A stretch of DNA of 64,000 nucleotides, taken from positions 23,433 to 87,432 of the forward strand of contig CANQET010000008.1 of the NCBI GenBank assembly GCA_947595585.1. Direction: 5' to 3'. Source of the stretch: an uncultured Clostridia bacterium (lineage in GTDB: Bacteria > Bacillota > Clostridia > Christensenellales > Borkfalkiaceae). A model generated the notes under the pieces. That model was not told where the DNA came from, did no database searches, and worked only from the letters and a program-made list of their open reading frames with translations. Positions within the stretch are counted from its first letter, which is position 1. The number at the start of each line of letters is the position of its first letter. This document shows, one piece after another, positions 21,416 to 23,319 of this stretch. The translations under genes were made by a program, and so were the position numbers.

Positions 21416-21460
21416 AAGAGGCACCGCTTTATGCGGGTCGCGGTAATGGTCCTGAATTGA

Positions 21461-21485
21461 GCGGTTTGGCGGTTCGCCAAACCGC
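21461..21485 (+). terminator. spoVG terminator
   Basis: GCGGTTTGGCG-gtt-CGCCAAACCGC perfect 11-bp stem. Confidence 0.7.
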
Positions 21486-21536
21486 TTATATTGTACCGCA
21501 AATCAGCAAGCGGAAAACCCGATTGCTGTGATAAAT

Positions 21537-21668
21537 TCATTTTTTCTTTTTCGCCAAGTTGTTCTTTTTCGCATAGTAAGCGGCAATTGCCGCTTTTTGC
21601 TTTTTCCGCGTCTCCGGAGTTTTGGCTTTTACATAGTTGCTTTTCTTTTTCTCTTTATTGAAAAACAT
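21537..21668 (-). CDS. 43-aa lysine-rich micro-ORF, coupled to the upstream 251-aa ORF
   Basis: not in ORF track (short); ATG 21668 lies 1 nt after the TGA of the upstream gene; MFFNKEKKKSNYVKAKTPETRKKQKAAIAAYYAKKNNLAKKKK. Confidence 0.3.
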   Translation of the reverse strand: MFFNKEKKKSNYVKAKTPETRKKQKAAIAAYYAKKNNLAKKKK

Positions 21669-21669
21669 C

Positions 21670-22425
21670 TCATTCGCCCTCCACGCTTATTACGGTATCA
21701 AAGTCGCATTCCTCACAATACGCTTGCAGCCGTTCTATTAGTTTTTCGCTCGGCTTAAATTTTTGCTTTATGAGATACATGTCTCGCATTTCATATAGCG
21801 GCGTTGCCATTATCTTTTGCTCGTCTATGTCATAAAAAATACAATAATTGCCCGAGTTTGTCCAATATCCGTAAAAATAATCAAAGGCAAATACTTTATG
21901 CCTTTCGTGCGTCGCCCTATTTCTAAAATATAATATCCGATGCGTATAACAAGCGTTCGAAAAAACATCCAACTCGTCGTCGAAAACCAATGTCTCTCTT
22001 TTATACAGCGGAAGCATGCAATATTCGTTCAACAGTCCACGGATATATACCGATAATTCTTGTGCGGTTATTAAAATTTCGGAAGTCTCAATTTCGTCAA
22101 AGACCGAAATATTTTCTTTTGAGGGGCGTATCCAAAGAGATTCATCCAATTCACCCAAATTTTCATCGTTGAAATACACCCTGTCGATGACGGTATTGAC
22201 GGCGTTATATATGTTTTCACTATCAGACCGATTGTATTCGTCTTTTAGTATATTCTCGATTTGGTTGCGCCTTTCCTTGCGCACTTCCACAAGTATGGGA
22301 ATGAGCTTATTCAAAAGCCCATTCTTATTTGACTTACCATTTTTGGTAAATTCGAAGCGTAGTGCGTCGATTTCCAAAATGTTCGCCACAAAGGACGAAA
22401 CCTTCACTTTGATTTTGTCGTTCAT
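21670..22425 (-). CDS. Orphan 251-aa protein; possible RHH-like N-terminus and WYL-like C-terminal half
   Basis: AGGAG SD 8 nt before ATG; consensus promoter; AT-rich codon usage; domain ideas from sequence pattern only. Confidence 0.6.
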   Translation of the reverse strand: MNDKIKVKVSSFVANILEIDALRFEFTKNGKSNKNGLLNKLIPILVEVRKERRNQIENILKDEYNRSDSENIYNAVNTVIDRVYFNDENLGELDESLWIRPSKENISVFDEIETSEILITAQELSVYIRGLLNEYCMLPLYKRETLVFDDELDVFSNACYTHRILYFRNRATHERHKVFAFDYFYGYWTNSGNYCIFYDIDEQKIMATPLYEMRDMYLIKQKFKPSEKLIERLQAYCEECDFDTVISVEGE

Positions 22426-22442
22426 CGGGTAACTCCTATCAT

Positions 22443-22471
22443 ATTATACAAACTGTCTACCCAAATGTCAA
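22443..22471 (-). promoter_or_regulatory. Promoter of the 251-aa ORF
   Basis: minus strand TTGACA-N17-TATAAT (perfect hexamers). Confidence 0.65.
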
Positions 22472-22536
22472 GGAAATCAACTGAAATAGTCAATGTTGTC
22501 TACCGTAGAACTAAGAATGCGGCCGACAGGATTTTC

Positions 22537-22565
22537 TTGAATAGCAGGCATTCTTTTGTTATAAT
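22537..22565 (+). promoter_or_regulatory. Upstream promoter P1 of the 113/91-aa pair
   Basis: TTGAAT-N17-TATAAT with TGt extension. Confidence 0.45.
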
Positions 22566-22597
22566 AAAACTGCAAGTGAAACAAGACGCCCCTACAC

Positions 22598-22626
22598 TTG
22601 ACAAAATTTATGCGAGGTATTAAAAT
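22598..22626 (+). promoter_or_regulatory. Proximal promoter P2 of the 113/91-aa pair
   Basis: TTGACA-N17-TAAAAT. Confidence 0.6.
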
Positions 22627-22662
22627 GAGTATAGTTGGCTTTTTGCTCAAGCCAAAAAAGAA

Positions 22663-23004
22663 ATGGCCAAAAAAGGAACAAAGTATGTAAGGGTCGGTAA
22701 ATACTATCTGACTTCCCATGCGCAGAATCGGATCGTTCAAAAGGAAAGAACTATAAAAAAGATCGATGTTTTGGACAATCTGTTTACAAAACCAAATGCC
22801 ATTACGCAAGTAAAATACAATAAGAACGGTAAACCCTCATATAATCGTGTGGGTAAGAGAATTACGACAAGCATAAATCCAACAAACAACAATGTTGCGA
22901 CTTGCCGACCTGTAAGCAAAAAAGAAATTAAACAATTCGGCTTGACTAATGTCGGAAAAAAGGGAGGAAAAAAGAAATATGTTAAGCAAAAGTCTGGAAA
23001 GTAA
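22663..23004 (+). CDS. Orphan basic 113-aa protein; candidate toxin (SHAxxR motif reminiscent of DUF4258/BECR-fold RNases)
   Basis: YYLTSHAQNRIVQKERTIKKIDV... motif; Lys-rich tail; overlaps the next ORF by 26 nt. Confidence 0.5.
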   Translation: MAKKGTKYVRVGKYYLTSHAQNRIVQKERTIKKIDVLDNLFTKPNAITQVKYNKNGKPSYNRVGKRITTSINPTNNNVATCRPVSKKEIKQFGLTNVGKKGGKKKYVKQKSGK

Positions 23005-23254
23005 ATTCACGCCGAGAGCAAAAGAAGAGGCGAAAAAACTTTTCGCCGAAATGAATATAACGGAGTTGAACGACGATAACCTCTATGCGGTTGAAGTTGA
23101 ACTTGACACAAGGATAAGCGGATTGGTTACGATGGATGAATGTGAGCACAAACCGATCGACCATGAGCTTCTGAAAATTTACGATACGCTGTCGGATATT
23201 ATTCTGGAGCACGAAGAAGAGATCGATTTTCTGAATAAGTTGTTTTTACAATAA
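22979..23254 (+). CDS. Orphan acidic 91-aa protein; candidate antidote/immunity partner
   Basis: AGGGAGGA SD 10 nt before ATG 22979; helical-looking, Asp/Glu-rich sequence. Confidence 0.5.
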   Translation: MLSKSLESKFTPRAKEEAKKLFAEMNITELNDDNLYAVEVELDTRISGLVTMDECEHKPIDHELLKIYDTLSDIILEHEEEIDFLNKLFLQ

Positions 23255-23319
23255 AAGAAAACGGTTTTGACAAAACAGATGATCCGTTTATAGGGCGGAC
23301 AAAACGAATACATTTCGTC

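Follow-up and report, generated by a model that had tools for sequence, protein, structure and literature searches.

Toxin-immunity pairs, toxins of the DUF4258 family and regulators with a WYL domain are each already known. DUF4258 is a family of toxin-antitoxin (TA) toxins with the Barnase-EndoU-ColicinE5-RelE (BECR) fold, counted at about 6,000 BECR toxins, for which neither an activity nor an experimental reference is listed (PMC11980606). Among WYL proteins, WYL1 combines ribbon-helix-helix (RHH) motifs, an Sm-like WYL barrel and a C-terminal domain, binds single-stranded RNA and boosts Cas13d (PMC6547453), and BrxR and CapW repress defence systems, CapW in response to single-stranded DNA that it senses (PMC9122601, PMC11662680). 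Here we describe a four-gene locus on a 64,000-nucleotide stretch of DNA (the window) from an uncultured Clostridia bacterium (GCA_947595585.1, contig CANQET010000008.1, positions 23,433 to 87,432). Two overlapping open reading frames (ORFs), ORF1 and ORF2, lie on one strand, and the genes for a protein of 251 amino acids (aa), p251, and a 43-aa protein, p43, lie on the other. We consider it likely that ORF1 encodes a toxin and ORF2 its cognate immunity protein, within a polymorphic conflict module that has a WYL-type gate. No paper was found in the literature on a WYL1-like protein and a 43-aa protein accompanied, once per genome, by a slot of interchangeable small BECR-type toxins that share a leader.

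Both ORFs are genuine genes, because 102 homologues of ORF1 were recovered (56–90% identity) and 17 contigs carry a 91-aa protein identical to that of ORF2. The original prediction, which was made from the letters of the DNA, had described an overlapping pair with a basic first product and an acidic second, and the details held: the two ORFs overlap by 26 nt, and a strong Shine-Dalgarno sequence (AGGGAGGA, 22961–22968) inside the end of ORF1 finishes 10 nt 5′ of the ORF2 ATG. ORF1 has an isoelectric point of 10.57, with 29 lysine and arginine residues against four aspartate and glutamate residues, and ORF2 one of 4.47, with 22 acidic residues against ten basic ones. The same overlap is kept in the loci of the window's toxin type (type A, below). 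A second possible ORF2 start at 22949 (101 aa) is not a conserved start and is lost in the sister strains that retain ORF2. Among relatives of ORF1 the layout is constant, with the 43-aa and 251-aa genes on one strand and the toxin and a gene of about 90 codons on the other.

Direct searches with ORF1, ORF2 and p251 against Pfam, NCBIfam, PADLOC and PHROGs yielded no significant match. The family had been proposed from a resemblance to the DUF4258/BECR signature; the hidden Markov model (HMM) check suggested for it, a direct Pfam search of ORF1, was negative at E ≤ 10, and sequence searches against PDB chains gave chance-level matches only. The resemblance was borne out transitively. A profile of the 102 family members, run against 1.84 billion representative proteins with a cut-off of E ≤ 1e-3, retrieved 168 distant relatives, many of them short proteins. 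Eighty of these were scanned against Pfam, and 36 matched PF14076 (DUF4258) with a best E value of 3.1e-9. The match sat at the extreme C terminus of many longer relatives (residues 395–472 of 478, 670–750 of 755 and 550–643 of 654), and the N-terminal partners in the scanned set were Phage_min_cap2 (nine), Phage_Mu_F (two) and Phage_portal (two), together with RHS, PT-HINT, PAAR, Phage_GPD and DUF637. These partners are delivery modules of polymorphic toxins of the MuF, RHS, VgrG and CdiA types.

H19, R23 and R29 of the ORF1 motif TSHAQNRIVQKERTI are nearly invariant in the family, and the consensus of the distant relatives, TxHAxxRxxERxV...NPL...GRPS...IG..ATV.INP...TV.PTS, aligns with TSHAQNRIVQKERTI...KPN...GKPSYNRVGKRITTSINP in ORF1. 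Another toxin type in the same slot, type C, carries the canonical HAxxRMxERxIS motif (HAVNRMNERKIS), and hhalign joined type A to type C with a probability of 99.2% (E 8.9e-20). In that alignment TSHAQNRIVQKERTI is paired with HAVNRMN--ERKIS through a two-residue insertion on the ORF1 side, exactly the longer motif spacing that had been remarked on in the original prediction. Type A was joined to type B at 99.9%; types A, B and C are thus homologous. The type C toxins scored 18.1, 14.3 and 14.0 bits against the DUF4258 HMM, below the gathering threshold of 25. An AlphaFold2 model of ORF1 had a mean predicted local distance difference test (pLDDT) score of 91.4. Its best compact PDB folds, all non-significant, were the BECR toxins CdiA-CT NC101, colicin E5 CRD, RelE and CdiA-CT O32:H37, and a search of viral predicted structures (BFVD) gave three significant matches (E 5e-6 to 4e-5) to proteins of 324–963 aa; a DUF4258 protein of Microbacterium phage Honk was a BFVD fold match with a probability of 0.99. 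ORF1 is therefore probably a small basic domain of the DUF4258 superfamily with a BECR-like fold, and we infer that it is an RNase. The nearly invariant residues His19, Arg23/Arg29, Ser59-Tyr60-x-Arg62, Thr68 and Asn72-Pro73 are candidates for catalytic or structural roles.

The locus scan took one genome per GTDB species and found the module in 38 species-level loci, one copy per genome, all from gut metagenome-assembled genomes (MAGs) labelled Christensenellaceae, Christensenellales, Ca. Scatosoma or Clostridia. At least six types of toxin, of 105–170 aa, occur in the divergent slot across these loci, each with its own downstream gene. Type A, the window's own type, occupies nine loci; its toxins carry HAQNRIV and are 63–89% identical to ORF1 where intact, and the immunity protein is acidic and about 91 aa long. 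Type B (16 loci) is 32–43% identical to ORF1 and is followed by immunity proteins of about 100–113 aa that end in DLDDLNRRLGL. Type C, with the canonical motif, occurs in four loci with a 75-aa immunity protein. The toxin of type D (six loci, 80-aa immunity protein) is unrelated and contains HRPYDHIHDW, type E is a single locus with a toxin of 169 aa and an immunity protein of 119 aa, and type F, also a single locus (L040), encodes an EndoU_bacteria domain above the Pfam cut-off (30.2 against 25.3 bits) next to a 127-aa immunity protein. Type D (L011, L016, L024, L026 and L041; WVYKDMDTADAHRPYDHIHDW) and type E (L037; HWHWYNWW) belong to no detectable family and are candidate new toxin-immunity families. 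One locus, L033, has p251 and p43 without a toxin-immunity cassette.

The toxin and its downstream gene change together. Toxin cores are 3–98% identical between loci, against 45–91% for p251. In Spearman correlations of pairwise identities over 30 loci, toxin-core identity followed immunity identity (rho 0.75), against a rho of 0.15 for toxin and p251. Between the window and L004, for example, p251 is 91% identical, the toxin 37% and the immunity protein 11%. Orphan immunity genes or truncated toxins lie downstream of the cassette in seven loci (L007, L009, L015, L024, L028, L031 and L034); they are complete immunity genes of another type in L009, L028 and L031, and 5′-truncated toxins with their immunity genes in L015 and L024. 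The toxin fragment of L015 begins within the leader (LKPKKEMAKK), and L017 retains an intact immunity gene beside a split toxin pseudogene that has lost its leader start codon. These remnants point to cassette replacement through recombination within the conserved 5′ region, of the kind seen in contact-dependent inhibition (CDI) and Rhs loci.

The exact ORF2 protein was also found in at least eight other assemblies of the same species (L045, L047, L048 and L050–L054), in which spoVG and a D-2-hydroxyacid dehydrogenase gene are the immediate neighbours of ORF2 and the flanks are 98.4–99.9% identical to the window. The segment missing from these strains (Table 1) includes nearly all of ORF1 as well as the regulatory region, p251 and p43, and stops short of the Shine-Dalgarno and coding sequences of ORF2. 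The same TCGTC junction is present in two haplotype backgrounds, and ORF2 in the deletion strains differs from that of the window by two synonymous and no non-synonymous changes. This fits an ORF2 that is useful or harmless alone and a toxin that cannot be kept without it, and it fits TA and competition readings alike. Together with the covariation of types (rho 0.75) and the orphan immunity genes and truncated toxins, the ORF2-only strains support the original view of the pair as a TA-like toxin-immunity cassette.

Table 1. Features of the locus; coordinates are positions in the window.
Feature	Coordinates	Strand	Remarks
p43	21537–21668	-	43 aa, isoelectric point 10.4; start 1 nt after p251 stop
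Segment deleted in sister strains	21546–22958		1413 bp replaced by TCGTC
p251, RHH and WYL protein, presumed regulator/sensor	21670–22425	-	324 homologues; AlphaFold2; Foldseek
p251 promoter	22443–22471	-	TTGACA-17-TATAAT, 12/12; TGTCTACC at 22454–22461 inside spacer
Operator-like inverted repeat	22497–22528		TGTCTACC...GGTAGACA; right arm degenerate here (GGCCGACA, 22521–22528)
Promoter P1, toxin operon	22537–22565	+	TTGAAT-17-TATAAT with TG, 10/12
Stem-loop	22573–22600	+	arms CAAGTG (22573–22578) and CACTTG (22595–22600); 3′ arm overlaps P2 -35
Promoter-like P2	22598–22626	+	TTGACA-17-TAAAAT, 11/12; -10 abuts/overlaps leader ATG
Conserved toxin leader ORF	22625–22690	+	Shine-Dalgarno GAGGT at 22614–22618; frameshifted here, reads MSIVGFLLKPKKKWPKKEQSM and stop
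A_AAA_AAG heptamer	22654–22660	+	left by deletion, in the leader's phase; read from sequence
ORF1, putative toxin core	22663–23004	+	113 aa; divergent DUF4258-superfamily (BECR-like) domain, then disordered Lys-rich tail
ORF2, putative cognate immunity/antitoxin	22979–23254	+	91 aa; own Shine-Dalgarno; covaries with toxin type

The other half of the module is constant. Nearly all loci carry p43 and p251; p43 was found in 39 of 41 loci at 55–91% identity, and p251 of the other loci is 51–91% identical to that of the window. The sequence of p43, MFFNKEKKKSNYVKAKTPETRKKQKAAIAAYYAKKNNLAKKKK, is very basic and matches no family. The AlphaFold2 model of p251 (pLDDT 87) has a predicted β-α-α, RHH-like N terminus. 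Foldseek aligned the model with WYL1 (6oaw) over its full length (about 260 columns, E 4e-8, template modelling (TM) score 0.61–0.63), with the predicted N terminus matching the RHH-containing N-terminal domain of WYL1, and over about 83 residues with the WYL domains of DriD, BrxR, PafBC and CapW (probability 1.00, root-mean-square deviation about 2 Å). PoNi_C (E 0.14), the sole direct match of p251, was dropped as chance after the WYL fold had been found.

In almost all loci the intergenic region has the same order, namely the p251 promoter, the inverted repeat, P1, the stem-loop and P2, and this promoter and operator layout is kept although the toxin and immunity types change. The 64-kb window contains only two TGTCTACC sites, and both direct TGTCTAC copies stand at fixed positions in 30 of 37 loci. 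The tandem promoters of the original prediction were recovered by a consensus scan and their positions are conserved in related loci, P2 in 31 of 37. For the stem-loop between them, which can also be written GCAAGG...CCTTGAC, 87.5% of cells were paired over 32 loci, against 30–52% in slid controls, and 33 cells carried a double change, against 11.7 in shuffles (0 of 500 shuffles reached as high a count). This covariation comes from a manually specified stem; RNAalifold predicted no structure in the 5′ region, and the stem-loop had no Rfam match. Since the -10 element of P2 abuts or overlaps the leader ATG, a transcript from P2 would lack the leader start codon, and its first AUG would be the conserved Met14. 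It is therefore possible that the two promoters yield long and short toxin isoforms.

That leader qualifies the start given for the first ORF in the original prediction. ORF1 exists as an ORF at the position reported, with MAKK at its N terminus, but MAKK is not the true start of the toxin. Most homologues are 125–127 aa long and begin MSILGFLxKPKKEMAKK, and the ancestral toxin start is the ATG at 22625, 6 nt after GAGGT, from which MSI[LV]GFLxKPKKE is encoded ahead of MAKK. The leader is in frame with the toxin (MSI[LV]GFLxKPKKE-MAKK) in every other type A or B locus examined. In the window, a 1-nt deletion in a CC(A)7G run (now A6, 22654–22659) has put it out of frame, so that CCA AAA AAG AAA TGG stands where other loci have CCN AAA AAA GAA ATG, with one A more. 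Assembly error was considered as the cause and is unlikely, because the identical A6 run was found in separately assembled contigs of other assemblies. The ATG at 22663 has no Shine-Dalgarno sequence of its own and the leader is uncoupled from it; the window copy can therefore be no more than a weakened toxin allele. What the deletion leaves, A_AAA_AAG, is a slippery heptamer of the dnaX type. A -1 slip on it would recreate ...KPKK-EMAKK... and hence the full-length toxin, which may make the frameshift leaky or may be a coincidence.

At the protein level, the 13-aa leader, with the motif MSI[LV]xFLxKPKK, is common to types A, B, E and part of C, and it contains no Pfam domain and no signal-like region. 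Elsewhere the frame is kept behind non-canonical or weak leader starts (ACG in L030 and L042, ATA in L017, ATT in L034 and TTG in L043), and expression of the leader-bearing toxin may have been tuned down repeatedly. A leader hairpin (22635–22641 with 22649–22655) had also been proposed. Its two 7-bp arms are indeed exactly complementary, but its role as a regulatory element was rejected: it is probably in large part a by-product of the Gly-Phe...Lys-Pro codons, because it lies inside the leader coding sequence and is only partly conserved, with a mean of 5.4 of seven pairs kept and only two of seven at some loci.

As a whole the module is a low-GC unit of four genes and 1.75 kb (about 21537–23264), and the window is 84% similar in DNA sequence to its nearest relative from 21521 to 23264, where the similarity ends. 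Here it is flanked by spoVG and the dehydrogenase gene; in other genomes its neighbours are leuS and an ATP-grasp gene, plsY and iPGM, metK, or rpsB. Its GC content is about 20 points below that of its flanks in the three genomes compared (38 against 60%, 39 against 59% and 31 against 52%; stretches 21450–23300 of the window, 4800–7000 of L001 and 4800–6700 of L002). It also follows the GC content of the host, at 31% in the 52% genome and 38% in 60% genomes. Low GC and variable insertion sites led us to consider an origin from a mobile element, prophage or plasmid. The module stands at differing chromosomal sites, yet no integrase, transposase or other recombinase was found, no terminal repeats were seen at its aligned boundaries, and no relatives of p251 were present among 50,697 phage and 72,556 plasmid records.

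Two observations concern the edges of the module and one divergent locus. Hairpins at 21435–21512 in the gap between spoVG and p43 (AGCGGTTTGGCG GTTC GCCAAACCGCT) are 86% conserved with L001 despite other flanking genes there, and probably form a bidirectional terminator carried along with the module; in Rfam they gave a sub-threshold hit to cyano_het_sRNA (31.9 against 35.7 bits). In L033 (3400–3994), on a MAG labelled Bacteroidaceae, p251 and p43 are present and unrelated GC-rich DNA replaces the intergenic region and the toxin slot, which may be due to rearrangement or to a chimeric contig.

We propose the following model for the module. The p251 protein would bind TGTCTAC operators, one in its own promoter and an inverted pair just upstream of P1, and would gate transcription of the toxin operon on a nucleic-acid ligand sensed by its WYL domain. 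The trigger could be, for example, DNA damage or phage infection, in parallel with BrxR, CapW and DriD. A direct co-factor role for p251 is also possible because its closest structural relative, WYL1, binds single-stranded RNA and boosts an RNase. We infer that ORF2 neutralizes the toxin through direct binding. Recombination in the conserved stretch of promoter and 13-aa leader would bring in new cassettes and push the old ones downstream, where displacement would leave orphan immunity genes and 5′-truncated toxin genes. The window would hold a weakened toxin allele whose only possible products are the 113-aa form without a leader or, rarely, a protein made by -1 frameshifting, together with intact immunity. 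In its full form, in which a WYL1-like protein and p43 govern a swappable slot of BECR-type RNase toxins (DUF4258-like, EndoU and others) that is fixed in a gut clade and coupled by the leader, with isoforms or an RNA co-factor as possible refinements, this model is tentative and carries somewhat more than a third of the weight.

Several results weigh against a gated toxin-immunity module. Neither DUF4258 nor any other family in Pfam (even at E ≤ 10), NCBIfam, PADLOC or PHROG matched ORF1, and the BECR folds in the PDB were matched at E values of 0.08–1.3 and TM scores of 0.3–0.5. ORF2 and the other immunity types have no DNA-binding domain and no family in the HMM libraries. The WYL assignment of p251 has no Pfam match behind it and rests on predicted structure, and binding of p251 to the operators is uncertain because the RHH domain of WYL1 prefers single-stranded RNA over double-stranded DNA. 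The module lies amid housekeeping genes and not in a defence island, and it carries no secretion signal, trafficking domain, or secretion or lysis gene, which bears on a role in defence or competition. Finally, the toxin copy of the window may be non-functional through the leader frameshift.

If ORF1 and ORF2 do form a toxin-immunity module, its role comes close to an even chance of being an intracellular system triggered by stress or phage, which is favoured by the connection to WYL proteins, by toxins that are small and stand alone, and by the lack of export signals. Interbacterial competition through some release route is a serious contender on the same premise, and pure addiction is improbable. 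In its most specific form, the competition reading holds that the toxin is released or delivered, that the leader is an export, processing or packaging signal and that the ORF2-only strains are resistant "cheaters". Displacement of cassettes with orphan immunity genes and 5′-truncated toxins is a hallmark of CDI- and Rhs-type loci, the distant homologues are C-terminal domains of delivered MuF, RHS, VgrG and CdiA-like toxins, and conservation of the leader as a protein across types A, B, E and part of C would suit such a signal. However, types D and F lack the leader, signal peptides, domains for receptor binding or translocation, and genes for secretion or lysis are all absent from the module, and the toxins are only 105–170 aa long. 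The at least eight same-species assemblies with ORF2 alone, in two haplotype backgrounds and with synonymous changes only, are what resistant strains would look like, but a TA system would also allow such deletions, since only deletions that retain the antitoxin are viable. On balance we regard this specific form as doubtful.

An ordinary chromosomal type II TA pair acting in addiction or persistence, with p251 and p43 as functionally unrelated neighbours, is poorly supported and in our estimate improbable. Two small overlapping genes for a basic toxin and an acidic partner would suit it, as would the 36 of 80 distant relatives that match DUF4258, the many short relatives and the listing of DUF4258 among type II TA toxin families (PMC11980606). 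Nevertheless, p251 and p43 accompany the slot, and the promoter and operator layout is shared across toxin types; ORF2 has no DNA-binding domain for autoregulation, and the four-gene unit moves with sharp boundaries between differing housekeeping contexts. That ORF1 is a non-toxic basic nucleic-acid-binding or structural protein, with ORF2 as an unrelated acidic partner or chaperone, is likewise poorly supported and very unlikely, for although ORF1 has a very basic composition, a disordered tail rich in lysine, high conservation within type A and no direct family match or significant PDB fold match, it is linked by profile and fold to DUF4258 and to polymorphic-toxin C-terminal domains, an EndoU nuclease toxin occupies the same slot at L040, and the polymorphism, orphan cassettes, toxin pseudogenes with intact partners and ORF2-only strains would not be expected of a housekeeping DNA-binding protein.

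The gated toxin-immunity module that we prefer would unite features that are usually found apart: cassette displacement as in polymorphic toxins, a TA-like core and a WYL sensor of the type usual in the regulation of phage defence. For uncultured gut Firmicutes, it could reveal how small RNase toxins come to be gated and how they diversify. No model in Pfam, NCBIfam, PADLOC or PHROGs, the four HMM libraries searched, covers the toxin family of ORF1, and natural variants are plentiful in this branch, along with clear candidates for catalytic residues and with cognate inhibitors. Within the species, the series from a full module with a weakened toxin to ORF2 alone is a natural test of selection on immunity genes. 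The structural tie between p251 and WYL1 raises the possibility that partnership with RNase effectors is a general trait of WYL1-like proteins.

Compared with the DUF4258 toxins, ORF1 shares the H-A-x-x-R-[MI]...E-R-x-I, GRPS and INP motifs, transitive profile homology, small size, an adjacent putative neutralizing gene, and a predicted α/β fold whose nearest compact neighbours are BECR RNases, although those PDB matches are non-significant. It differs in lacking a direct HMM match, in its two-residue motif insertion, and in the extra 13-aa N-terminal leader and Lys-rich tail of its family. The gene order here is toxin then immunity, as opposed to the antitoxin-toxin (A/T) order listed for DUF4258 (PMC11980606), and ORF2 is not a DNA-binding antitoxin, regulation having apparently been handed to a separate WYL protein. 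Type II TA systems likewise have adjacent small genes for a toxin and a proteic partner, here with a 26-nt overlap; they differ in that ORF2 has no DNA-binding domain and the operator repeats stay constant while the immunity type changes.

With polymorphic toxins (CDI/CdiA-CT, Rhs and MuF; PMC3482391, PMC5576092) the locus shares a constant N terminus before a variable C-terminal toxin, cognate immunity directly downstream, displaced orphan immunity genes and truncated toxin cassettes, and a toxin superfamily that also forms the C-terminal domain of MuF, RHS, VgrG and CdiA-like proteins. The constant part, however, is only about 13–17 residues here and has no recognizable trafficking domain, whole toxins are 105–170 aa with no linked secretion system, and genes for a WYL-type regulator and a basic protein of 43 aa accompany the pair at this locus. 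The predicted structure of p251 matches WYL1 over its full length, and WYL1 likewise accompanies an RNase effector, but p251 has 251 aa against 392 aa and no CRISPR context. Like BrxR and CapW, p251 is encoded divergently from its companion system, and inverted repeats lie between the two; unlike theirs, its N terminus is a predicted RHH and not a winged helix-turn-helix. The three-component TA systems omega-epsilon-zeta and paaR-paaA-parE have a regulator separate from the toxin, and share with this module an RHH-type regulator and an acidic antitoxin without a DNA-binding domain. In the locus described here, by contrast, the presumed regulator is divergently transcribed and has a ligand-sensing WYL domain, the toxin belongs to another family, the toxin-antitoxin pair is swappable, and an extra gene, p43, is present.

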